Shown here one piece after another: positions 719 to 26,009 of a stretch of 31,078 nucleotides of DNA (its first letter is position 1; the number at the start of each line of letters is the position of its first letter). The position numbers and the translations under genes are program-made. This DNA is from a virus (Duplodnaviria; Heunggongvirae; Uroviricota; Caudoviricetes): positions 1 through 31,078 of the IMG/VR virus record IMGVR_UViG_2713896898_000008, one strand, 5' to 3'. A model generated the notes under the pieces. The model was not told the origin of the DNA. It was given only the letters and a program-made list of their open reading frames with translations, and did no database searches.

Positions 719-1276
719 TTACGCTTCCTGCTCTTTCTTGATACGTTGCACCGTCTGTGTGCTGACACTGAAATCTTTTGCTACGCTCCGAATTGATCCA
801 CCATTCGCGAGAGCGGCAACAATTCCCGCTCGATCAATTGCTTTTCCATTACCACGTTTTGCTATACGTCCAGCGGCCTTAGCTGCGGCGATCCCCTCAC
901 GCTGCCGCTCAAGCATCATTTCACGTTCCATTTGTGCCACTGCTGCAAGCACTGTGAGCATCATATTCCCTGCGGGAGAGTTCTTCCCTGTCTTAAAGTC
1001 TTCTTTATGGAAATGCACAGACACGCCGCGCTCTGTTAATTGCTCAACCGTTGCCAGAAGGTCGGCTGTATTACGACAAAGGCGATCAATACTATGGACG
1101 TGTAACACGTCACCCTCCCGCACATAGTTCATCATTGCCTCAAACTGTGGGCGCTGAGTGTTCTTGCCTGACGCTTTATCTTCAAAGACTTTATCAAGAG
1201 TTACTCCAGCTAATTGACGGTCTGTGTTTTGTTGCACAGTCGATACCCTAATGTATCCAATATTAGCCATTTTCAT
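719..1276 (-). CDS. small serine recombinase (resolvase / DNA invertase family)
   Basis: 185 aa; N-terminal IGYIRVSTVQQNTDRQ catalytic-serine motif and C-terminal HTH typical of Hin/Gin/TnpR family; likely true start is the internal ATG at 1270 (MANIGYIRV). Confidence 0.85.
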   Translation of the reverse strand: MKMANIGYIRVSTVQQNTDRQLAGVTLDKVFEDKASGKNTQRPQFEAMMNYVREGDVLHVHSIDRLCRNTADLLATVEQLTERGVSVHFHKEDFKTGKNSPAGNMMLTVLAAVAQMEREMMLERQREGIAAAKAAGRIAKRGNGKAIDRAGIVAALANGGSIRSVAKDFSVSTQTVQRIKKEQEA

Positions 1277-1834
1277 TTTCCTTCTGTGTTGATTTGTGTG
1301 TAGTGATTATTGATCGTGTTGATTAGGTGTGTAAAGGACTTTTTTCACTACGAAATTCGAAGGTTTTTAGTGTGGTGATTTAGCCTGCTTTATCACTACA
1401 CGTCTTGCATGAGAATCATGTAGTTACATTTTGGTAAAATTAGCAAGCTATTAAATAGTGTGTTTATTTTGAAAAAATAATTTTTTGTTGCATTAAAGGA
1501 AACTTGTTCGACAAATAATAGATTGATTTTTAATCAACAATTTCTGATAGTGCTCTGTAAGCCGTATTACACAAGGCTTTGCGAAAGTGATGTAAAAGTG
1601 AAGAAAGCTAACATTGCACTTTTTAAGCTACTTTTCATTGGATTTTTACGTAGGAATTACACAGGGATTAATCATCAATTACATTGAATTTAAGCCTGTT
1701 TTAGATGTTTAATTTTGGTAGCAAGAAACACTTTTAGAAGATCATTGCACAGATGCTATGTGATGATTGGATGTAACGGTAGGTCACTGTGAGCTACCCC
1801 TATCAAGTCTGATACCCGATAAGTATAAATAACA

Positions 1835-1933
1835 CCTGGGAAATGAGTTCCGATCTATTTAGGAAATAACCGTGGAAGTGGTTTCCTACCTACCTAGGAA
1901 ATGAGTTCCTATCACCTAGGAAATGATTTCCGA
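1835..1933. repeat. three direct copies of a ~18-bp unit CCT(A/G)GGAAATGA(G/T)TTCC (1835-1853, 1893-1910, 1915-1933) plus a partial copy near 1860
   Basis: read directly; each unit contains inverted half-sites GGAA..TTCC; followed by a very AT-rich tract 1934-2003. Confidence 0.75.
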
Positions 1934-2003
1934 CAATACTATAATTAAACTACAATTAAACTATATAATATAATTCTTTTTTATCTTTATAAGAATAATT
2001 ATA

Positions 2004-2036
2004 GGGATACCCGTTAGGGAGTCTAACGGGTATCCC
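2004..2036. repeat. perfect 14-bp inverted repeat GGGATACCCGTTAG-(5 nt)-CTAACGGGTATCCC
   Basis: read directly; embedded in AT-rich DNA; protein-binding site or hairpin. Confidence 0.8.
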
Positions 2037-2945
2037 TTAATCTATTGGCATTCGCCAGAACCTTGCACAAGTTAGAGTGTTAGTCGTTAGACTGCTTGTC
2101 ATAACACATAGTTTTTGTTTGTTGATGTTAGTTAGTAGATCTATGTTCGCTAATGCCGCTCACAACGAATATGTAATCTACTATGTGCAAATAGCCTACG
2201 GCTTGCGTAAGGCTAAATAGTCTTGCGCTGTGCGCTTCAATAGTTCCATTGATGAGGCTTACGCCAATCTAACGATCATCAATCTATTTAAGAGAAAATC
2301 TATTGTGCAATACTCTGACGAGTGCAATAACCTTGTGTGCTACGCGTTAGCGATGTTAGCACATAGACACAGACAACAACCAACAACAAACAAAAAAGAA
2401 AGAATGGTTTTAGTAGTTGAAGGTTAAATAAGTTTCTACCGCTTAAATCAAGCCGTAGGCGAGCTAAACGTATATAAGGCAGGGAAACCTTAGCGGTAAT
2501 AGATTAGCTCATTATAGAGCTTCTGAGGAGCTTTACAGGTATTTTATAAGGTGTCTGAAATTAGAGTTTATCTATCATCTCCTTTTCATATACCTAACAA
2601 ATACAAAATAAGCCCCTTAAATAAACCTCTGGCGAGCTAAACTGTCATTACATAAGGGAATGTATTGTTTTTATCAAAACCTCGTTAGAACGCGTTTTAG
2701 AGAATAAGGAAGAATAGCATCACACAGAAGAGCACGAATTGCTAAGCAAAATCATAACATACTGAAAAATGATCAATATTTTATGGGCGGGGGTTGACAA
2801 AAGCCTTTAGTTATGGTAAAGTAATATTAGGGACAGGAAAACATTCCTATCCTCTAAATAATTAAACCAATGCACCGCACTTTGAAGCCCAAGAGGCTTG
2901 CAAGGTGTCTTTTTCTTTTAACCAAATAGAATAGGAGGTTAATTA

Positions 2946-3128
2946 GTGAAGTATTTCACTTCTCAAGATGTAGTTGAAGCCTGGAAACGTGGTGAGATCA
3001 ACCGCTTTAGGGTAAGAATGAATAGGAACACAGCGCGACGCTGTGGTTATCCAGAGCGTGAAAAATGTTTTGACGATGCACTAAAAATTATTGATGAACT
3101 GCGTAAGGCAGGAGCAGAGAAAGAATAA
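2946..3128 (+). CDS. hypothetical protein (60 aa)
   Basis: GTG start preceded by strong SD (ataggagg); first gene of a same-strand small-gene cluster. Confidence 0.45.
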   Translation: MKYFTSQDVVEAWKRGEINRFRVRMNRNTARRCGYPEREKCFDDALKIIDELRKAGAEKE

Positions 3129-3151
3129 TAACAGGAGAAGGAGAAAACCAA

Positions 3152-3340
3152 ATGAATATTAATTTTGATTCTGCAACTTATAACGCGTTGTTAAATCGTG
3201 CAAAGGCAGAAGGGAAATCAATTCCAAAACTTGTTAATGAATTACTAATTACAGTCCTTACAAAGGAGGAACTAAATGATCAAAAATATCAAAACAATTG
3301 CCGAAGCGAAAGCCAAATGTCTAAATCAGAAAGATGGTAA
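3152..3340 (+). CDS. putative ribbon-helix-helix (CopG/Arc-like) DNA-binding protein
   Basis: 62 aa; N-terminal beta-strand then helix pattern (NINFDSATYNALLNRAKAEGKSIPKLVNELL); SD ggagaaggag upstream; 3' end overlaps the next gene. Confidence 0.45.
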   Translation: MNINFDSATYNALLNRAKAEGKSIPKLVNELLITVLTKEELNDQKYQNNCRSESQMSKSERW

Positions 3341-3944
3341 ACAAAAATATGTAGTCGTTGAGCAGTGGTTGAAGATGTTTAAAAAGTGGTTCTCACCGTC
3401 AGGTAATGAATACACCGCTACACTGCCAGCCGTTGAAATCTATAGCTATATAGCTGGATTCAATGAACAAGGGCAAGAATGTTACGCCACTCAAAAAACA
3501 TTATCTAATATTGGAATGGTTAGTGATCGCCAGGTTCGCAATATTATAAATATGTTTGTTGATATGGGAGTTCTTTCTGTAGAGGCTCGGGACGGGCAAA
3601 CATCACTCTATAAAGCATTACCATTCACAGATGCACATATTACTCCCCCTGGAGAGTCATCACTACCTGATCCTTCTGAGAAAGAAGACGAATCTAATGA
3701 AATATTGAATGTTTCCGAAATCATCGTTGAAGAAGAAACACAAGAGCCAGAGTTCCCTGAGCGGCCCGAAATTTTTACTTGGCTTCTTTCCCTTGATAAG
3801 AAGAAACCACCGCACGAAGAAACAGAAGATTTTGTAAAACGAGCATTAGATTCAAAGAATATCTATCTTTGTGAAAATGATTTTGACTCTTTGATAATTG
3901 ATCTCAAAAGTGAGAGCACAATATATGATTCACTACCCTTCTAA
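3276..3944 (+). CDS. winged-helix DNA-binding protein with acidic C-terminal region (regulator or replication initiator-like)
   Basis: 222 aa; strong SD aaggagg 7 nt before ATG; HTH-like segment ATQKTLSNIGMVSDRQVRNIINMFVDMGVL resembling the N-terminal DNA-binding domains of phage/plasmid initiators. Confidence 0.5.
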   Translation: MIKNIKTIAEAKAKCLNQKDGKQKYVVVEQWLKMFKKWFSPSGNEYTATLPAVEIYSYIAGFNEQGQECYATQKTLSNIGMVSDRQVRNIINMFVDMGVLSVEARDGQTSLYKALPFTDAHITPPGESSLPDPSEKEDESNEILNVSEIIVEEETQEPEFPERPEIFTWLLSLDKKKPPHEETEDFVKRALDSKNIYLCENDFDSLIIDLKSESTIYDSLPF

Positions 3945-5264: not shown

Positions 5265-6248
5265 TAATGAAAATTATTTGCATTTATAATGATTTTGTTA
5301 TATAATAATTTTAGGGGTAGATAAAAAGATTTTAGTTGGTGTTAATCCTTCTACTGTCATAAATCCCTGCATATGGAAGGTGATAGCCTCAAAGGTTGAG
5401 TGGCATTAACCTCTAACAAATATTACCTTCCATCTCTCAAGAAGTTTTAGAATAATCATAACTCCCTCTTTGATTGTTGATTGTTTCTACGTTGTGTTGA
5501 TGAATGTTGTTAGGCATTGTGCTTAATTTTGATAAAAGCGGGTAGGTGTTATCTCCTTGCCCTTCCCGCTCTTATTTTTCATCTATGCTTATCCTAAAGC
5601 TCCTTATTTTGTCAGAAAACATTAAAGAGCCTTACACTGATAGTTATATTTTATAACTATTTACTAACATCATTAAACTATTATTTAATGACAGAAGTTA
5701 GTAACAGAATAATCTATTAAGTTGTTGTCAAAAACAATCATCTGCATAGCGTTAGCCGCAAGCAGAGAGAGTTTAGCTAAGAATGGTGCAATAAACTTTG
5801 GAAATATTGATAGCAAAACGGGTTTTATAGAATGCGGATCTATAAGCTTTGGTTGTAAAAACGATTTTCTGAAACGGTAGATTACTGTTGGTGTAGTTAA
5901 TCATTATTAAAAATTTAATCTGTGAGTAGATTGGAATAGTGATTCCTTAAAATCTGACTGGTGCATCCACACCATGAAAGATAGCGGTTGGCCACCGCGC
6001 CCCGAATAGATATTCCTGATTGATTCCGCATGTTTTCCTAAGAGCATGTTTTCAGGAGTATCTATTCACCCTTTAAGCATATCATCAAGTATATTTAAAA
6101 AGTGTATTTGCTGATATGTTTAATCCTCTTATAGTTTAACTTATCAATTATGTAATTGCCCGCACGTTAAAGCCCCTTTGCTGGTCAGAATTAACCTCTT
6201 ACGGCATTGGGGCTTTTTATTTGTCTGGCACTAACAGGAACATTATTT

Positions 6249-6446
6249 ATGAAACAAGAAATGATTATCAGCAAAGACGGGGAAACGATGATTGTTAGTG
6301 ATGAAAACCTCATTAAGGTTGCCGCACTGTTGGGAGTTACTCCCGAAAGTCTTCGTTCTACCACTGCTCAATTATTTAAATCGGCTGATGCGGTTAGTCT
6401 TGCTGATGCCCTTAAATCTAAAATTAAACAACTGAAAGGAAAATAA
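6249..6446 (+). CDS. hypothetical small protein (ORF-track 6207..6446; internal ATG 6249 preferred)
   Basis: first gene of a tight five-gene plus-strand operon. Confidence 0.35.
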   Translation: MKQEMIISKDGETMIVSDENLIKVAALLGVTPESLRSTTAQLFKSADAVSLADALKSKIKQLKGK

Positions 6447-6450
6447 TCTT

Positions 6451-6848: not shown

Positions 6849-7880
6849 ATGAATGATTTATCAACATATTTTGGCGTTAATACTGCGGTAGTAACTCCAT
6901 TTGCTTATGAGAATGCACTTAATACCCTGATTACTAATCTCGATCTGTTCGATGTGCAATATCATACAGAAAACAGCATTCTTCTTACCGACCTGATTGA
7001 TCAGTTTGTGCAGGTAGCTGGGGAAACCTCGCCTTACGCTCAAAGCGACTGGAACGCCTCTAAACGTCAGGAATGGTCAAACAAACTTTTCCAGATGAAA
7101 CACGTCGGCAGTATTAACGCTGTTACTTCTCGTGACCTGGAACAATACAGCCGCCAATATCCAAACCGTTCTGATGCTATGCTGGTAGCGGTTAATGATT
7201 TCTCTGAGGCTCATTACCGTTCACACGCAAACCGTGTTGAAGTGGATCTGATTACCGCGCTGCTGGGCCTGAAAGTTGAATCTGAATATGCCGGACAAGG
7301 TGATCTCGACTTCCTCGACGGTCAGGCTAAAACCACGGTACCCGCTATCGACTTTGCATCGACTACTGTTAACCCGTTCCTTGCTATTCGTAAAGCGGTG
7401 CGCTTACAGAGTGAAAAGCTGGGGTCTGGTCTTGCTGCAAAGCGAACTGGTGTAATTATCTTTGCTGCTGGCACTGCTGCTGATGGTTTGTCATCTAACC
7501 CGCTGATCAGTGACATGGTGAAATATGCAGGCGATGCGAGTGCTACGGCCCTGTTTACCCGTATGGTTGATTCTAACCCAGCCTATGACTCTTTCCAGAT
7601 TGGTGGGATCACTGTTATTGATGTGTCAATGTTTCCTGAGATTGTTGCTCACATCGGAGAGAACGGTTTCGCAATTGTTCCGGTAATGGATAAAGCGGCA
7701 CAGTGTTACCAGCTTCATAGCGGCGTTGGTGTGCGTCATGCTGAGTTAGGTCAAGATGCCGTGTTGCATCACCAATATCTAATCAAGGATGAATTCCAAT
7801 TCCCATCTGTGGTTACTGAGACATCTTATCTGCCAGTAAACAACATTCCGCAAGCTATCATCTTCGGATCTGCTGCGTAA
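6849..7880 (+). CDS. hypothetical protein (343 aa), composition reminiscent of a major capsid/coat protein
   Basis: SD aaggaaaa upstream; Ala/Gly/Ser/Thr/Val-rich with no TM segments or enzymatic motifs; functional assignment is inference only. Confidence 0.5.
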   Translation: MNDLSTYFGVNTAVVTPFAYENALNTLITNLDLFDVQYHTENSILLTDLIDQFVQVAGETSPYAQSDWNASKRQEWSNKLFQMKHVGSINAVTSRDLEQYSRQYPNRSDAMLVAVNDFSEAHYRSHANRVEVDLITALLGLKVESEYAGQGDLDFLDGQAKTTVPAIDFASTTVNPFLAIRKAVRLQSEKLGSGLAAKRTGVIIFAAGTAADGLSSNPLISDMVKYAGDASATALFTRMVDSNPAYDSFQIGGITVIDVSMFPEIVAHIGENGFAIVPVMDKAAQCYQLHSGVGVRHAELGQDAVLHHQYLIKDEFQFPSVVTETSYLPVNNIPQAIIFGSAA

Positions 7881-8263: not shown

Positions 8264-10105
8264 ATGTTAGAACTTAACGTCAGCCGCTTATCAAACGTTG
8301 TCACCTTCCAGGTTGATCGACCATCATTAGAGAAAGCAAAAGCAGAAGTAGAAAAACTTCGTAAACAAATGGCGGCGGTGAAAGATATAGAATTGCGTGT
8401 TAAGACACATAAACAATCAACTTCTAAAGCAAAAAAAGACGTAGACGATATTGCTAAAAAGCAAGCACAGGCAGATAAAGCCAATGCTAAAGCACAATTA
8501 GCCGCTCAACGTGTAGTTGCAAGAGAACAAAAAGCCCTGGCAGCACGCAAAGAGAAGGCAGACTTAAAACTGTTAGACGTTGGATCAAGCATTAGTGCAT
8601 TGCACCGCCTTTCTGTAGCGGAACAATATAAAGCTATTGCACAGGCTAGAGAAATTGCCCTCCAATATGAAAGAGGAGCTATTAGTCTGGCACGTATGAA
8701 TAGCCAAATGAAACGCCTACAACAGCAACAACGTAAGATTAATGGCAATCGTAACGCTCACGCTAAAGCCTATGCACCTGTTAAGGGTAGCGGGAGTATT
8801 GGCGGCGGTGCTGCGGCTGTTATGCTGGGTGGCTTAGGCGCTGGCGCTACGTATATGGCTATGAGCAAAGCCTCTGAATTTGTTACTAACAGCTTTGCGA
8901 ATGCTGAAACGCTGGGTGAATTGTATAGCCGTGCGAAGCTGGGCGGTGTAGACGTTAACCAGATGAACAATATTGAGCAATGGGCCTACAAAAACGGCGT
9001 TGATTCAATGATGGGGGATCAAGGTAAACGTAAGTATCTCGATCAGATGAAAGATGTGCGTGAGCGTGCAACCAAAAGCTATGATGAGGCTGAATATGTA
9101 GTCGATAAAAAAACAGGCAAAGGTGAATGGAAGGGCGGCGATAGCGGCATCAATACTTTAATGAATGAAGGATTCTTAACTAAAAAGGATCTAAAAGACT
9201 TTGCTGATAATCCGGCTGGTCTGGTTAGTAAAGCAGTTCAGGGAATGGTGAAGAAAGGCTATTCAGATGCACAAATCGGTAGTCGTCTGGAAGATCTGGC
9301 TGATGATTTGATGCTCACCTCTAAATACTGGACACGCTCCGCTAAAGAAGTGGAACAATCAGCACGAGAACAACGAGAATCAGGGCGCTGGGTAACACAG
9401 GCACAACAGGAAAGCGTTATTAAATTCCGTGAACTGAATAATGCACTTAGTGGGCTTTCTGACTCACAAGGGATCGCCTTTGTTGATGGCTTTATGAAAT
9501 CTCTTGATCCGAAAGTGATTGAAGAGTTTAAAAAGAGCATGGTTGCAATGCTGCCAATGTTTACCAAATTAGGCGAGGCTATCGGCGGATTGGTTAACGC
9601 CGTAATGAAAACAATCAACTGGCTGATGAAAAACGACGAGAAGACGGAAGCTATTCAGAAGAATTTAGGGGATGCACCGCCACTATCTAACGAAGGAATG
9701 AAGCAGAATCTTTCTAATCTCACTCCTGATCAATATAAAGGCGCTGGCACCGGAACAACTAAGCCAGATAACAGCAATTCCCTGGTTAACACTATTAAAA
9801 GCTGGTTTATGCCAGAAGAAACGGTAGGTGGGGCGCAGGCTGTAAATCAATACAGTCTCGAAGGACAAAACATTGCAAATCTGAAACAGAGTGCAGCACA
9901 ACAAGCTTTCAAGGCTCCTTCTTACACCTTTGCACCTGTTATTAACTTCAATCCAGAATTACAAGTAAATGCAGAAGTGCCGCTAACTATCGAATCAGAC
10001 ACCGGACGATTGAGCGAATTTATCGACTTCAAATCAAAGGCATCCTCCGCTGAGTTTAGCAAGCTATTAACGCTGGGTGTTATGTCAGGCGGGTCAACCT
10101 ATTAA
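8264..10105 (+). CDS. hypothetical 613-aa protein with long N-terminal coiled coil and Gly-rich hydrophobic segment (tape-measure / ejection / TolA-like architecture)
   Basis: residues ~20-180 are Lys/Ala/Glu/Gln-rich heptad-like; GSGSIGGGAAAVMLGGLGAGATYMAMS hydrophobic stretch; function inferred from architecture only. Confidence 0.5.
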   Translation: MLELNVSRLSNVVTFQVDRPSLEKAKAEVEKLRKQMAAVKDIELRVKTHKQSTSKAKKDVDDIAKKQAQADKANAKAQLAAQRVVAREQKALAARKEKADLKLLDVGSSISALHRLSVAEQYKAIAQAREIALQYERGAISLARMNSQMKRLQQQQRKINGNRNAHAKAYAPVKGSGSIGGGAAAVMLGGLGAGATYMAMSKASEFVTNSFANAETLGELYSRAKLGGVDVNQMNNIEQWAYKNGVDSMMGDQGKRKYLDQMKDVRERATKSYDEAEYVVDKKTGKGEWKGGDSGINTLMNEGFLTKKDLKDFADNPAGLVSKAVQGMVKKGYSDAQIGSRLEDLADDLMLTSKYWTRSAKEVEQSAREQRESGRWVTQAQQESVIKFRELNNALSGLSDSQGIAFVDGFMKSLDPKVIEEFKKSMVAMLPMFTKLGEAIGGLVNAVMKTINWLMKNDEKTEAIQKNLGDAPPLSNEGMKQNLSNLTPDQYKGAGTGTTKPDNSNSLVNTIKSWFMPEETVGGAQAVNQYSLEGQNIANLKQSAAQQAFKAPSYTFAPVINFNPELQVNAEVPLTIESDTGRLSEFIDFKSKASSAEFSKLLTLGVMSGGSTY

Positions 10106-10152: not shown

Positions 10153-10830
10153 ATGGCAATGGGTCCGTTAACCATTGGTCGCCCGACTGAGGCGAAAATC
10201 AACAGCACAAGCAACGATAGCAACGGTAGAACAACCAAAGGGGGTAACGGCTTTGCGATCATTACCTCTAATCTCGGCAGTGGTGCAAATGCTGCTTACA
10301 ATGACTACCAGGCATTATCATTTGATAGCGTGGAATCGACGAAAGTTAGCAGAAATGCGGACGTTACAAGCTATGCCGTCGAATCAGGATCAGAAGTTAG
10401 TGATCATGTTCAAATACGGAATAACAAGTTCACATTACAAGGGCGTATCTCTGAAACCGTATTGAAGCTCAATCCTGATATGATTAAGAATGCTGGAATT
10501 AACGGCAATCGACGTATGCTTATGCTTGAATACCTAAATCAGTTGATGGACAGTCGCCAACCTTTCCTACTTGTCACTGAGTTAAAAAATTATGACAACG
10601 TTGTGTTAGTTGGCATGTCTTACGAAGAAGAAGCAAGCGAAAGCCTATTGTTTACTCTTGATTTTGAGCAAATCCGTCTTGTCTCTAAAGCAACTACAAG
10701 CGCAATTGCGGTAAAAACAGCACCAAATAAATCTGTAGGAGGCCAGGTTAAAATGCAGGTAAATACAACAGAACAGAAAAATCAAAAAAGCCCAGGGCAA
10801 GACGTTGTAACGCCAGTATTTAAACAATAG
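10153..10830 (+). CDS. hypothetical protein (225 aa)
   Basis: last gene of operon; followed by hairpin 10872-10903. Confidence 0.45.
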   Translation: MAMGPLTIGRPTEAKINSTSNDSNGRTTKGGNGFAIITSNLGSGANAAYNDYQALSFDSVESTKVSRNADVTSYAVESGSEVSDHVQIRNNKFTLQGRISETVLKLNPDMIKNAGINGNRRMLMLEYLNQLMDSRQPFLLVTELKNYDNVVLVGMSYEEEASESLLFTLDFEQIRLVSKATTSAIAVKTAPNKSVGGQVKMQVNTTEQKNQKSPGQDVVTPVFKQ

Positions 10831-10910: not shown

Positions 10911-12188
10911 CTATAGCGTTGTTTTACGCCTTAAATTTGATTTTTTATTGATTGATAAGCCTTTCTCTATTTCAGGGTAGCGTAAAAGCTCAATATATTT
11001 TTTAAGCTCTATTGGAGAAGCTGCATTTTTGCTATATGTGCGGAATGTTTCTGTATTGCCGCGTGTATGGCCCAGGAGAAGGGCGATCCTGTCTTCTGGA
11101 ATTTGATTTCGATCAAGAAGCTGTGCTACTCCGTGTCTCAGAGAATGAAACACTTTCCTTTCTGTTCCCTTTTCCCCTAAAGCCTTTCGTTTAGCTCTTG
11201 TAAATCGTTGTGTATGCCACGTAGAGCGTTTACCGTCAGCACGTTCTGTAATGCTGGCGTGATAGAACAAAAAGCCATTGTGAGGCTTTTCACGCAGCGA
11301 CAACACCAACGGAGTGATAAGGTTATGCACAGGCACAACACGTGCCGCAGCTTTCGTCTTTCCCTGTGTGATTTCAAAACACAGCACACCTTCGATCTCT
11401 TTCACATCGTCTATTGTGAGACTTGCTATCTCATTGATCCGCATACCTGTATATAAACCGATAAGACACAAAGCCGTCATTTCTTTGTTTTCTGCTGAAT
11501 TACCGGAAAATACTTGCAACACCTGCAATAGCTCTTTGTTAGAAAATGCCTCGTAGCTCTCTCTACTTTGTGCCACATCAAGCCTATGCCCTCGCCAGGG
11601 GGAGAGCGCCCTTTCTGGCGCATCGTGGTAACGTGATGAAGCTAATTCCCATAGCTGGGCCATTGGACTGATATAATTTGCAATTGATTGTTGTGAAAGA
11701 GTTTTTTGCATGTGTTCAATCCAGCCTGTAACAGTGGTGCGGCTTACATCTTGCAATGCAATATCAGGCTTTTTACGGTAGGAGAGAAACATCTCTACCG
11801 CTTTTCTTGCCTTAGCTAAAGTGGCTGGCTTCTTCTTCGTGCTGTTAATTGTCAGGTAGATTTCAAGAATTTTAAGCAATGACGGACACGAAGACGCTGT
11901 ATCTTGCACTCTGGTAGCTGTTTTGGCGTATTTAGCCTTACTGCGTAACAGTTCCAGCGTGTTTTCTATTGTGCTGTTTACAGGGGCAACACTCTCCCGT
12001 AAGCAATGGTATTCATCTGCAATCTGATCACGCTTTCTACGTGCAACACGAAGATTACTTGTGTGTAGACTTCTGACAAACGTCCTTTTTCCTTCAAAAA
12101 AGGGCTGCATATACACAGGCAGCGTGATCCTTAAATAGTAGTTACCGTAAGAATCACAGATTAAGTATTGGTTAGGCTTGTATCTCAT
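10911..12188 (-). CDS. tyrosine recombinase / phage-type integrase (second integrase; ORF-track 10911..12275 begins at TTG)
   Basis: C-terminal catalytic signature HSLRHGVAQ ... LLGHT ... TYSK (R-H-R-Y family); preferred start ATG 12188 has SD GGAG 6 nt upstream. Confidence 0.8.
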   Translation of the reverse strand: MRYKPNQYLICDSYGNYYLRITLPVYMQPFFEGKRTFVRSLHTSNLRVARRKRDQIADEYHCLRESVAPVNSTIENTLELLRSKAKYAKTATRVQDTASSCPSLLKILEIYLTINSTKKKPATLAKARKAVEMFLSYRKKPDIALQDVSRTTVTGWIEHMQKTLSQQSIANYISPMAQLWELASSRYHDAPERALSPWRGHRLDVAQSRESYEAFSNKELLQVLQVFSGNSAENKEMTALCLIGLYTGMRINEIASLTIDDVKEIEGVLCFEITQGKTKAAARVVPVHNLITPLVLSLREKPHNGFLFYHASITERADGKRSTWHTQRFTRAKRKALGEKGTERKVFHSLRHGVAQLLDRNQIPEDRIALLLGHTRGNTETFRTYSKNAASPIELKKYIELLRYPEIEKGLSINKKSNLRRKTTL

Positions 12189-12363
12189 AAAATCTCCGGC
12201 TAAAGTGTCGGAGCGTTTGTAATGTGAAAATTGATTGTGACGCATAGAAAATGATGATTTTTCTATAAGATTCAATCAATTAGTAATGGTCGTAGGTGAT
12301 GGCATTAACACGAGATTAATCGAGTGTTTTACTCCTATTATCGGCACCATTTAAATCAATAAG

Positions 12364-21158: not shown

Positions 21159-22088
21159 ATGGCAAACACTGCTGAGATATTCAATTTTCCAGTACCGGAT
21201 GTGGCACAAAAGGAGCCGCGCGTGGCAGATCTCGATGATGGTTATACGCGCATTGCAAATGAGTTGCTGGAAGCTGTAATGCTGGCCGGATTAACACAGC
21301 ACCAGCTTCTGGTCTTCCTGGCTGTCATGCGCAAAACATATGGCTTTAATAAAAAACTGGATTGGGTGAGCAACGAGCAACTTTCCGAATTGACCGGGAT
21401 ATTGCCGCACAAGTGTTCTGCTGCAAAAAGCGTTCTGGTAAAGCGTGGGATTCTTATTCAGAGCGGGCGGAATATCGGCATCAATAATGTGGTCAGTGAA
21501 TGGTCAACATTACCCGAATCAGGTAAGAAAAATAAAGTTTACCTGAAAGAGGTAAATTTACCTGAATCAGGTAAGAAAAGTTTACCCAAATCAGGTAAAG
21601 GCACTTACCCGAATCAGGTAAACACAAAAGACAAACTAACAAAAGACAATATAAAACCTTTTTCGTCCGAGAATTCTGACGAATCCTCTGACCAGCCAGA
21701 AAATGCCCTTCCTGTGGTGAAACCGGATGCTGCGATTCAGAGCGGCAGCAAGTGGGGGACAGCAGAAGACCTGACCGCCGCAGAGTGGATGTTTGACATG
21801 GTGAAGACCATCGCGCCATCAGCCAGAAAACCGAATTTTGCAGGGTGGGCTAACGATATCCGCCTGATGCGTGAACGTGACGGACGTAACCACCGCGACA
21901 TGTGCGTGCTGTTCCGCTGGGCATGCCAGGACAACTTCTGGTCCGGTAACGTGCTAAGTCCGGCCAAACTCCGCGACAAGTGGACCCAACTCGAAATCAA
22001 CCGTAACAAGCAACAGGCAGGCGTGACAGCTAGCAAACCAAAACTCGACCTGACAAACACAGACTGGATCCACGGGGTGGATCTATGA
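21159..22088 (+). CDS. O: replication initiation protein O
   Basis: N-terminal domain matches lambda O (DLDDGYTRIANELLEAVMLAGLTQHQLLVFLAVMRKTYGFNK); iterons inside the gene; start chosen at ATG 21159 with SD GGGAGG (track ORF 21069..22088). Confidence 0.85.
   Translation: MANTAEIFNFPVPDVAQKEPRVADLDDGYTRIANELLEAVMLAGLTQHQLLVFLAVMRKTYGFNKKLDWVSNEQLSELTGILPHKCSAAKSVLVKRGILIQSGRNIGINNVVSEWSTLPESGKKNKVYLKEVNLPESGKKSLPKSGKGTYPNQVNTKDKLTKDNIKPFSSENSDESSDQPENALPVVKPDAAIQSGSKWGTAEDLTAAEWMFDMVKTIAPSARKPNFAGWANDIRLMRERDGRNHRDMCVLFRWACQDNFWSGNVLSPAKLRDKWTQLEINRNKQQAGVTASKPKLDLTNTDWIHGVDL
21510..21623. repeat. origin of replication iterons within O (five copies of ~TTACCCGAATCAGGTAAG)
   Basis: direct repeats at ~21510, 21538, 21558, 21581, 21604 followed by A-rich tract, the arrangement of ori-lambda. 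Confidence 0.8.
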
Positions 22089-23560: not shown

Positions 23561-23922
23561 ATTTAACACCTAAAAACTGTTTAAAGTCAGTATGATAGAG
23601 CGATTTCTGGAACCTGTTGAGTGATGGTGATCACATTATGAGAATGAATGACTGCGGTTGACCGCCACCATTCACTGGGGCTAATTCTTTGTGTTGCCGC
23701 AAAATCGGCACACGGGATTGGCGTCCCGGAACACTACTCAACGCATACCGCGTTAAGCAGTTTTTTATGCGCTAAGCGCGGCTACGCCCAAATTATGGTG
23801 GGCTGTGTGAGGGCTTCTTCGGAAGCGCCGGGTTTGTGTAGCCGGTTACGCCAACCTTGCACAGTTCACTACCTGTCGATTGGCGTCGTTGGTGGTGATT
23901 GTTAACCTGATGAGGTGATACT

Positions 23923-24482: not shown

Positions 24483-26009
24483 ATGAAAAAAGCCATAGCA
24501 TATATGCGATTTTCATCACCAAGCCAGATGTCTGGTGATTCATTAAACCGTCAGAGAAGGCTTATTACTGAATGGCTAAAGGTAAATAGTGATTATTACC
24601 TTGATACCGTAACGTATGAAGATTTGGGGTTAAGCGCATTCAATGGAAAGCATGCACAGTCAGGAGCTTTTTCGGAATTTTTAGATGCCATAGAGCATGG
24701 CTGTATATTGCCAGGAACTACATTGCTAGTTGAAAGTCTGGACAGACTTTCAAGAGAAAAAGTCGGTGAGGCGATTGAACGCCTGAAACTGATTTTAAAT
24801 CATGGTATTGATGTTATAACTCTGTGCGATAATACAACTTATAATATTGATTCTTTAAATGAACCATATTCATTAATAAAAGCAATACTTATAGCTCAAA
24901 GAGCCAATGAAGAAAGCGAGATAAAGTCAAGCCGAGTTAAATTATCATGGAAGAAAAAAAGACAAGATGCAATGGAGTCAGGTACGATTATGACGGCATC
25001 TTGCCCGAGATGGCTTTCATTAGATGAAAAAAGAACGTCGTTTGTCTTAGACCCTGACAGGGTGAAAACGATTGAGCTGATTTTTAAACTAAGGATGGAA
25101 AGACGCTCTTTGAATGCAATTGCTAAGTATTTAAATGATCATGCTATAAAGAATTTCTCAGGAAAAGAAAGTGCATGGGGGCCTTCTGTAATTGAAAAAT
25201 TATTAGCTAATAAAGCGCTGATAGGTATATGCGTACCTTCATATCGTGCAAGAGGGAAGGGAATAATTGAAATCGCTGACTATTATCCCAGAGTGATATC
25301 AGATGATTTGTTTTACTCTGTGCAGGAAATTCGGCTGGCACCTTTTGGTATTAGCAATAGTAGCAAGAATCCTATGTTGATAAATCTACTGCGAACAGTT
25401 ATGAAGTGCGGCGCTTGTGGTAATACTATGATTGTTAATGCAGTATCAGGAAGCTTGCACGGCTATTATGTTTGCCCGATGAGAAGATTGCATCGATGTA
25501 ACAGGCCATCAATAAGAAGAGATTTGGTTGACTATAATATAGTTAATGAATTGCTTTTTAATTGTAGTAAAATCCAACCAGTTGAAAATAAGAAAGATGT
25601 TAATGAAACTCTGGAATTGAAAGTTATTGAACTTCAGATGAAAATTAATAATTTAATTGTTGCATTATCTGTTGCACCTGAAGTTACCGCTATAGCAGAA
25701 AAAATTAGAGTATTAGATAAAGAATTGCGAAGGGTTTCTATATCATTAAAAACTTTGAAGAGTAAAGGTGTAAGTACACTTGGTGATTTCCATGACATTG
25801 ATTTAACCAGTAAAAATGGGCGGGAATTATGTCGTACACTTGCTTATAAAACATTCGAAAAAATTATAATAAACACAGATAACAAAACATGTGATATCTA
25901 TTTTATGAATGGTATTGTTTTTAAACACTATCCTTTGATGAAAATAATATCTGCCCAACAGGCGATAAGTACTCTCAGGTATATGATTGATGGGGAAGTT
26001 TATTTTTAA
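24483..26009 (+). CDS. large serine recombinase (resolvase-domain plus recombinase and zinc-ribbon regions)
   Basis: 508 aa; N-terminal AIAYMRFSSPSQ...SLNRQ catalytic-serine resolvase motif; Cys cluster CGACGN...C; AT-rich codon usage unlike the flanking nin genes. Confidence 0.8.
   Translation: MKKAIAYMRFSSPSQMSGDSLNRQRRLITEWLKVNSDYYLDTVTYEDLGLSAFNGKHAQSGAFSEFLDAIEHGCILPGTTLLVESLDRLSREKVGEAIERLKLILNHGIDVITLCDNTTYNIDSLNEPYSLIKAILIAQRANEESEIKSSRVKLSWKKKRQDAMESGTIMTASCPRWLSLDEKRTSFVLDPDRVKTIELIFKLRMERRSLNAIAKYLNDHAIKNFSGKESAWGPSVIEKLLANKALIGICVPSYRARGKGIIEIADYYPRVISDDLFYSVQEIRLAPFGISNSSKNPMLINLLRTVMKCGACGNTMIVNAVSGSLHGYYVCPMRRLHRCNRPSIRRDLVDYNIVNELLFNCSKIQPVENKKDVNETLELKVIELQMKINNLIVALSVAPEVTAIAEKIRVLDKELRRVSISLKTLKSKGVSTLGDFHDIDLTSKNGRELCRTLAYKTFEKIIINTDNKTCDIYFMNGIVFKHYPLMKIISAQQAISTLRYMIDGEVYF

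Follow-up and report, generated by a model that had tools for sequence, protein, structure and literature searches.

The Vibrio satellite PLE has its origin within an extensive non-coding region with several repeat families, and the N-terminal domain of its initiator, RepA, is known as structure 4RO3 (PMC7145576). The phage ICP1 encodes Odn, in which a domain 42% identical to the PLE RepA DNA-binding domain is joined to a T5orf172 nuclease domain; Odn cuts the PLE origin only when the iterons are present, and it is thought to drive the swapping of PLE replicon modules (PMC8263062). Here we analyze a 31,078-nucleotide stretch of viral DNA (IMG/VR record IMGVR_UViG_2713896898_000008, hereafter the window) and in particular a non-coding block at positions 1277-2945. 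Within this block an array of iteron-like repeats, an AT-rich tract and a palindrome, together spanning 1835-2036, probably constitute the replication origin of a ~13-kb island that resembles a phage satellite and lies at the tRNA gene thrW of E. coli. A winged-helix protein encoded 1.3 kb away is the candidate initiator, and its DNA-binding domain is also found in proteins of lytic E. coli phages. Below we describe the origin-like module and the protein, the phage copies and the rival explanations, and then the surrounding DNA.

Iteron array, AT-rich tract and candidate initiator

The motif CCTRGGAAATGAKTTCC has exactly three matches in the 31-kb window (1835-1851, 1893-1909 and 1915-1931), where 0.19 matches would be expected by chance and where none of 100 shuffles gave three. 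With a degenerate copy that lies between the first and the second of these matches, the array consists of four iterons (Table 1) with start-to-start spacings of 35, 23 and 22 bp, i.e. phased direct repeats at about two helical turns, and the dyad GGAA-N5-TTCC is present in each unit. The first-pass annotation of this DNA, made from the sequence alone, had described three internally palindromic copies within 100 bp; both statements hold, with the end of the array at 1931 rather than at 1933, which was two bases generous, and with the fourth copy added. The tract that it had called extremely AT-rich is indeed so, and it also has the lowest stability of any 70-bp duplex in the window, with a nearest-neighbour free energy of -65.2 kcal/mol versus a mean of -92.3 (standard deviation 7.2). 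An AT tract is kept beside the array in all ten relatives read. The inverted repeat that follows is perfect in the window, as first noted, and its left arm (GATACCCGTTA) recurs as GATACCCGATA at 1811-1821; the two copies bracket the iteron/AT module.

The comparison of the module drew on relatives in further E. coli genomes and in IMG/VR (individual relatives are referred to by handles such as L004 or P0016), and in about 22 distinct contigs both the array and the DNA-binding domain could be read. Wholesale replacement is limited to two segments, the array (1800-1944) and a cassette at ~3148-3650 that holds a small ORF (open reading frame) and the N-terminal ~125 residues of the winged-helix protein, and the flanks of these segments are 80-99% identical. 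Four unrelated repeat families were observed at the array position: type A (AGGAAATGAGTTCC, four copies), which is the type of the window, type B (ACAGAAAACTGT, five copies), type C (GTAACGATTCGTTAC, five to six copies) and type D (TAGGTCACTGTGAGCTA, three to five copies). Every unit is palindromic, the phasing is ~22-23 bp and an AT tract adjoins each array. The palindrome after the AT tract is the same throughout the subfamily of the window, and L003 and L004 differ there.

The results showed that array types A-D pair one-to-one with four types of N-terminal domain, without exception in the ~22 contigs. This match is not one of simple linkage, because the DNA in between assorts independently of type: the type B array is seen together with either allele of the intervening 2318-2436 segment, and an insertion at 2470-2612 occurs with types A, B and C. 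The type of the small ribbon-helix-helix-like ORF, which is part of the exchanged cassette, does not follow the array type. From this co-variation, the array and the DNA-binding domain of the initiator appear to determine specificity as a pair and to be exchanged in the form of two matched cassettes, and at least four such pairs would exist in the family.

The winged-helix DNA-binding domain occupies residues ~30-125 of the candidate initiator (type A, the swapped part) and is predicted by AlphaFold with a pLDDT (predicted local distance difference test) of 85-94. It is followed by an acidic disordered linker (128-160) and a small helical C-terminal domain with the tail ...IYDSLPF. For the protein of the window, Pfam gave no family other than HTH_36 (E 5.5e-5). 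PHROG families for replication initiation and of the DnaD-like kind match it as well, and these match the phage copies described below more strongly; weak matches to DnaD_N and Phage_rep_O (Pfam) were seen with the phage copies only. The best Foldseek match in the PDB is 4RO3, chains A and B (E 5.5e-3, TM 0.54-0.63), and the next fold matches are the S. aureus RepA_N initiators 4PQL/4PT7 and DnaD-N 2V79. When the PDB was searched by sequence, the whole protein had no significant match and the domain profile matched only short helix-turn-helix stretches (E >= 0.002). We take the initiator-like predicted fold as support for the assignment, not as proof of it.

No helicase or primase domain was found in the protein of the window with Pfam and PHROG, and no gene for a P-like helicase loader was identified in the island. 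Since a helicase/primase domain is absent, the initiator would have to recruit replication proteins. The tail reads ...IYDSIPF, ...YEDFDIPF and ...FFDPIPF in relatives (P0016, P0112, L003, L004), and over the family Y217, D218 and P221 are conserved to at least 90% and F222 is invariant, giving the motif Y-D-x-(I/L)-P-F. In E. coli, PriA, the chi subunit, primase and further proteins dock onto the C-terminal tip of SSB (DFDDDIPF). The initiator tail resembles this tip and may provide a route for recruiting replication proteins.

In the mechanism we propose, dimers of the initiator would bind the four phased palindromic iterons, upon which the adjoining 70-bp tract (89% A+T) would melt, and replication proteins of the host or of a helper phage would be recruited via the C-terminal domain and the conserved tail. 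Taken together, the co-variation, the initiator-like profile matches and predicted fold, and the position of the least stable duplex support what the first-pass annotation had put forward, namely that iterons and an AT-rich element form an origin that is served by the winged-helix protein.

Phage copies of the DNA-binding domain and rival explanations

A protein search revealed that the lytic Stephanstirmvirinae E. coli phages muut, inny, Mt1B1_P17 and BI-EHEC encode proteins with the DNA-binding domain of the initiator. Those of muut, inny and Mt1B1_P17 are 328-367 aa long and have two winged-helix domains in tandem, of which the second is in each case 88-89% identical to type A. As for the first domain, that of inny_184 shares 88% identity with type C over 140 aa, that of the Mt1B1_P17 protein shares 99% identity with type B over 105 aa, a stretch that reaches into the start of the island linker, and that of muut_154 is of a further type outside the A-D assignments. 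BI-EHEC has a type-A domain (90% identical), and a type-A domain is included in all the phage chimeras. The recognition helix of type A, SDRQVRNIINMF, is identical in the island and phage copies, and nucleotides 3371-3631 of the window share 93.5% identity with muut.

The phage proteins have neither the linker nor the C-terminal domain of the island protein and carry a nuclease-family domain at the C-terminus instead. This domain scores 22.5 bits with Pfam MUG113 (cutoff 22.3), reaches 2e-18 with phrog_681 'endonuclease' and falls below the cutoff with T5orf172 (E 0.03). A word-index protein search with the domain gave no matches, and an exhaustive search gave 91 homologues, in which it is always C-terminal in the protein. 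MUG113 was recognized in 24, CapR in 22 and T5orf172 in 15 of the 50 aligned distant homologues, and Tyr, Lys-Gly, Arg, Glu and GYTET are invariant or nearly so among them. Judged by these profiles and motifs, the C-terminal domain is probably a nuclease domain of the T5orf172/MUG113 kind (GIY-YIG superfamily).

A scan of IMG/VR with single iterons was swamped by chance 15-mers and two-iteron patterns were used instead. Among 2.9 million contigs, tandem type-A arrays were found in 6 and tandem type-B arrays in 9. These 15 contigs are 17-58 kb long, none being of the ~150-kb phage size, and the 12 in which the Rep domain is readable all carry island Rep genes. No copy of any A-D iteron core is present in the whole 146-kb muut genome, and the phage as a source of the sites was rejected on this ground. 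In the A/B scan of IMG/VR and the muut genome, the island family is the only DNA found with sites that match the binding domains of the phage protein. The muut genome has an annotated repeat region of its own at 75316-75400 (L133 1693-1777), which is of the GAGAATGATTATCA type, lies in a divergent intergenic region and is unrelated to the island iterons.

The tail-like proteins of the island provide a link to the same phages. Its Dit-like protein is 50% identical to muut_230 and its tape-measure-like protein 30% identical to the adjacent muut_231, and the best-ranked phage matches of the Dit-like protein (53%) are in phages of the phAPEC8/ESCO5/Mt1B1_P17 type with genomes of 131-152 kb. From these homologies, Stephanstirmvirinae are plausible helper phages of the island. 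Possibly, the double-domain nuclease protein of the phage would bind and cut the island iterons, as ICP1 Odn does on the PLE origin, and cassette swapping would be the escape of the island from this nuclease. We give an even chance to the full proposal, in which the ~13-kb thrW/tRNA-Gly island family would be an undescribed E. coli satellite that parasitises ~150-kb Stephanstirmvirinae myoviruses (phi92/phAPEC8-like) and is engaged in an origin-centred arms race, with the double-headed nuclease covering two specificities.

A number of observations weigh against an origin at 1835-2036. DnaA boxes and IHF sites are typical of plasmid iteron origins, though not of lambda; in the block DnaA boxes are absent (no TTWTNCACA and no R-box within one mismatch), there is one IHF-like site, at 1516, and the perfect form of the palindrome is not conserved, as its right arm has two to four mismatches in all seven aligned relatives. 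A distance of 1.3 kb separates the candidate origin from the initiator gene, and most of the DNA between them is unexplained. The protein has no match to Pfam RepA_N (PF06970), its Foldseek E-values are modest (5e-3 to 0.1) with generic MarR/Fur-type winged helices interleaved with the initiator matches, and homologues are named 'transcriptional regulator' or 'helix-turn-helix domain-containing protein' in the source databases. Further, L004 (5481-5570) and L146 (11721-11802) have a type-D initiator and an extra complete type-A array without a type-A protein; such a combination is not predicted by a simple pairing of array and domain, and the orphan array may be a mere relic or may act as a decoy or a sensor. 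The regulator names and the MarR/Fur folds would suit a rival explanation in which the repeats are an operator array and the winged-helix protein controls the island as its master repressor or activator, in the way of Stl in SaPIs (Staphylococcus aureus pathogenicity islands). Palindromic sites suit dimeric regulators, a minus-strand promoter-like site (TAGACT-16-TATAAT, 2025..1998) is directed into the AT tract and the array, and co-variation is equally expected for an operator-repressor pair. We still consider an operator array unlikely, since ~860 bp separate the array from the sole conserved strong promoter (2794-2822), without any overlap. The palindrome that is adjacent to this promoter (GGAAAACATTCC at 2836) was rejected as an operator of the initiator, as it belongs to a leader hairpin and is conserved whichever type of initiator is present. 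Moreover, the profile matches are to replication initiators and DnaD-like loaders, the top fold matches are to RepA_N-type initiators including PLE RepA, the array lies directly beside the least stable duplex of the window, and the acidic linker, the C-terminal domain and the conserved tail would be superfluous for a simple repressor. The alternative offered by the first-pass annotation, that the repeats are res, hix or crossover subsites of the small serine recombinase, has not stood up and is extremely improbable: the recombinase region is 95-98% identical at the nucleotide level beside array types A, B, C and D, although these arrays are unrelated, and L002, L003, L004 and L006 lack the recombinase and keep their arrays. 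It is true that a Resolvase-family enzyme adjoins the block and that resolvase sites are arrays of imperfect palindromes, but the units here are palindromes of 13-17 bp as compared to ~28-bp sites, the array is ~560 bp from the gene, and the eight aligned loci are all collinear with no inverted segment. An array that serves as a pac/cos-type packaging site for a small-terminase-like winged-helix protein, with the phages keeping the domain for packaging, would be in line with the use of winged-helix domains and repeated sites by small terminases and with the capsid-like and tail-like genes of the island. This is very unlikely, as the protein matches initiator families and no terminase family, and the phage copy cannot serve phage packaging because the muut genome is without such sites; in addition, the phage domain is fused to a predicted nuclease domain of the T5orf172 homing-endonuclease type.

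Attack by the phages has points against it of its own. The nuclease call combines borderline Pfam scores with profile and motif evidence, the structure model of the chimera has a pLDDT of 51 overall and ~30 in the C-terminal domain, and the link to the helper consists of two tail-protein homologies at 30-53% identity. The chimera was found in only 4 distinct phages among 50,697 records, a rarity that fits an accessory counter-measure, as expected. The relatives of the phage protein are homing-endonuclease-like T5orf172 proteins with varied DNA-binding domains, and it is conceivable, if rather doubtful, that it is an ordinary homing endonuclease or a phage regulator that shares the domain, without any antagonism; the origin of the island would then still be real. 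This explanation is at odds with the capture of the island specificities A, B and C at 88-99% identity and in tandem pairs, and with the restriction of tandem A/B arrays to island-type contigs in IMG/VR while muut has none of the four cores. The precedent of Odn, on the other hand, fits an origin-directed attack closely.

The satellite context, the cassette swapping and the phage copies of the DNA-binding domain go beyond the first-pass annotation, and the analysis gives a concrete, testable function to a block that is unannotated in 734 complete E. coli genomes, including those of O104:H4 outbreak strains. A literature search found no description of the island family, of the phage chimeras or of an E. 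coli satellite of these phages, which is not proof of absence. If the proposal is true, E. coli would offer an independently evolved instance of the origin-directed nuclease strategy, which is known only from ICP1/PLE in Vibrio cholerae, and this would be a second, independent and experimentally tractable conflict of the PLE/ICP1 Odn type; laboratory strains support the growth of muut, inny and Mt1B1_P17. Phage therapy and biocontrol are potential uses of Stephanstirmvirinae, and the alleles of island and nuclease could help to predict the strain restriction of phages. The matched cassettes would also be a natural set of four orthogonal initiator/origin pairs.

The remaining non-coding DNA and the island

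The block contains 64.8% A+T versus 57.1% for the whole window, and the longest ORFs within 1277-2945 are 65, 54 and 47 aa. The first-pass annotation was right to describe an AT-rich 1.7-kb region without a long ORF, but wrong to treat it as a single block. It is composite, with 1277-1500 belonging to the recombinase cassette and 2794-2945 being the promoter and leader of the downstream operon. The serine recombinase is an accessory cassette (~618-1500): some relatives have it, and others have different DNA in its place. No target site of this recombinase was found. The part between this cassette and the array (1501-1800) is conserved in all relatives and has single 'orphan' palindromes of other types.

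Table 1. Positions of features in the window (position 1 is its first letter).
Feature	Position	Strand	Remarks
Small serine recombinase, 185 aa, DNA-invertase type	719-1276	minus	Resolvase family; phrog_125 'DNA invertase'
Recombinase gene and upstream region	719..1500	minus	Promoter-like site 1335..1306; adjoins the candidate origin, outside it
Conserved left part	1501..1800		81-98% identity in relatives; ATTACACARG repeats at 1566 and 1656
Single 'orphan' type-D palindrome	1780..1796		TAGGTCACTGTGAGCTA; in conserved left flank; present in 8/10 loci read
Iteron 1 (type A)	1835..1851		CCTGGGAAATGAGTTCC; dyad GGAA-N5-TTCC
Half-site ahead of iteron 2	1858-1869		TTTAGGAAATAA
Iteron 2, degenerate copy	1870..1886		CCGTGGAAGTGGTTTCC
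Iteron 3	1893..1909		CCTAGGAAATGAGTTCC
Iteron 4	1915..1931		CCTAGGAAATGATTTCC
AT-rich tract, candidate DNA-unwinding element	1934..2003		88.6% A+T
Palindrome, 14-bp arms and 5-nt spacer	2004..2036		Arms GGGATACCCGTTAG (2004-2017) / CTAACGGGTATCCC (2023-2036), perfect in the window
Near-invariant non-coding segment	2037..2223		99.0% mean pairwise identity, 181/187 invariant columns, 8 loci
Sigma-70-like promoter of the initiator-containing operon	2794..2822	+	TTGACA-17-TAAAGT, TG extension
Leader RNA	2827..2919	+	Hairpin 2827-2857; terminator-like hairpin 2877-2908, then CUUUUUCUUUU (U-run)
Several small proteins	2946 onward		
Small ribbon-helix-helix-like ORF	3152..3274	+	Inside swapped cassette
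Winged-helix protein, 222 aa, candidate initiator	3276-3944	+	
Capsid-like (major capsid protein-like, MCP-like) protein	6849-7880		
Tape-measure-like protein	8264-10105	+	Homologue of muut_231
Dit-like tail protein	10153-10830	+	Homologue of muut_230
Tyrosine integrase	10911-12275	minus	
attR, 20-nt direct repeat of thrW 3' end	12331..12350		Beyond tyrosine integrase gene; right island end

The near-invariant segment that follows the palindrome is more conserved than the non-coding DNA on its flanks, which is 75-93% identical in the same eight loci. It was rejected as coding, since its ORFs are frameshifted in L002, L006, L008 and L010, and the ORFs examined in 2037-2430 are likewise broken by frameshifts in relatives. 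A structured RNA in 2040-2480 was also rejected, as the fold z-scores on the two strands (-2.7 and -3.0) show no strand preference and the core is too conserved for covariation. A permissive Rfam search of 1100-3100 gave chance-level matches only, with none for 2037-2223, and a comparison with phages by blastn, made for the origin region and for 2030-2330, gave no relevant match. An inverted repeat of ~30 nt (2043-2071 versus ~2300-2330), nearly perfect in the L002-type allele, encloses the segment, and further right a hairpin at ~2335-2365 keeps its shape between two sequence alleles, as judged by eye in the alignment. In L003 (4723-4830) and L004 (5777-5870), which are relatives of the tRNA-Gly/O157 type with a non-coding region of ~3 kb, a different G+C-rich sequence (GATCTTTTGCCTTCCGGCGTTAGC...) stands to the right of the origin and not the near-invariant segment.

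The TTGACA -35 box of the operon promoter is invariant in 10 of 10 loci and the -10 region is variable. In the leader that follows, the stem sequence differs among relatives and the fold z-score is -3.4. The presence of these hairpins ahead of the first gene suggests that the initiator operon is gated by antitermination or attenuation.

The window derives from an E. coli chromosome, and the block was found in 734 of 5426 complete E. coli genomes, always unannotated. In O104:H4 the island begins at the tRNA-Thr gene thrW, after proA, and it extends over ~13 kb to attR; from ~12.4 kb on, the window is an unrelated lambdoid prophage. Hallmark scans with Pfam, PHROG, NCBIfam and PADLOC were made on most island ORFs of at least 60 aa. 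They did not find the P4 alpha primase-helicase with sid/psu/delta, alpA and pri-rep of phage-inducible chromosomal islands (PICI), or the portal, protease and small terminase of capsid-forming PICI (cfPICI), and PADLOC gave no defence match; what the scans gave in their place was limited to an MCP-like, a tape-measure-like and a Dit-like protein, an integrase and a recombinase. A search of the genome contigs with the capsid-like protein of the island gave no match. The ~13-kb thrW island is integrative and resembles a phage satellite. A second ORF-poor stretch of ~1.2 kb within the island (5265-6450), unannotated in O104:H4, holds a 16-bp inverted repeat (6004-6019/6052-6067) and, of the five duplex windows that come next in order of low stability, three (starts 5265, 5644 and 6087).

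In the lambdoid prophage, a C4 antisense RNA (Rfam RF01695, 70 bits) was found at 23791-23876 beside a 508-aa ORF (24483-26009). The arrangement is reminiscent of the elements of P1/P7 type that control immunity or an antirepressor, here within a lambda-like phage. At the Rfam gathering threshold the C4 RNA was found in this neighbouring prophage only.

Comparison with known systems

The island and PLE have several traits in common, although no sequence homology was detected between them. In both, the initiator combines a winged-helix N-terminal domain, possibly RepA_N/DnaD-like in the island as it is in PLE, with an unrelated C-terminal domain, and helicase and primase domains are lacking. 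Semi-palindromic iterons are situated in both within a large stretch of non-coding DNA that has several repeat families, and modules of origin and N-terminal domain are swapped among relatives. In both, a lytic phage encodes a chimera of the DNA-binding domain of the satellite initiator and a nuclease domain of T5orf172 type, as predicted for the E. coli phages. The phage chimeras described here, unlike Odn, have two tandem DNA-binding domains of different specificity, and the identity between phage and island domains is 88-99% as compared to 42% for Odn and the RepA of PLE1. At least four specificities were seen for the island, whereas only the RepA type of PLE 1/4/5 is mentioned for Odn (PMC8263062). 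The two systems also differ in their settings: PLE has a large serine recombinase as integrase, a Vibrio host and ICP1 as helper, whereas the island has a tyrosine integrase at a tRNA gene, E. coli as host and ~150-kb Stephanstirmvirinae as candidate helpers.

With the lambda origin and its O protein, the island shares four to five dyad-symmetric iterons at about two helical turns, an AT-rich tract after them, the lack of DnaA boxes, and, as proposed for the island, an initiator with an N-terminal specificity domain and a C-terminal recruitment domain. A palindrome follows the AT-rich tract in lambda ori. The lambdoid prophage of the window offers a direct comparison, as its origin, in an O-like gene, has five palindromic iterons TTACCYGAATCAGGTAA (21510-21626) at 23-24 bp phasing followed by an A-rich tract (21510-21653 in all), and the layout in the island matches it. 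In lambdoid phages the iterons are inside the O gene and form one physical cassette with it, whereas in the island the two are 1.3 kb apart with non-coding DNA between them.

As proposed here, a satellite initiator of SaPI and PICI is specific for its own iteron origin, which is situated beside an AT-rich region, and related islands have different specificities. In SaPIs, Rep is a helicase, the primase is a separate protein (the Pri-Rep arrangement) and the origin is downstream of rep, whereas the initiator described here has no helicase or primase domain and the PICI gene order is absent. The RepA_N plasmids of Firmicutes (pSK41 and pTZ2162; 4PT7 and 4PQL) resemble the island in having iterons that are direct repeats with inverted sub-repeats, and perhaps also in the fold of the DNA-binding domain. 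Their iterons are usually within the rep gene and their initiators belong to Pfam PF06970, a family to which the island protein has no match.

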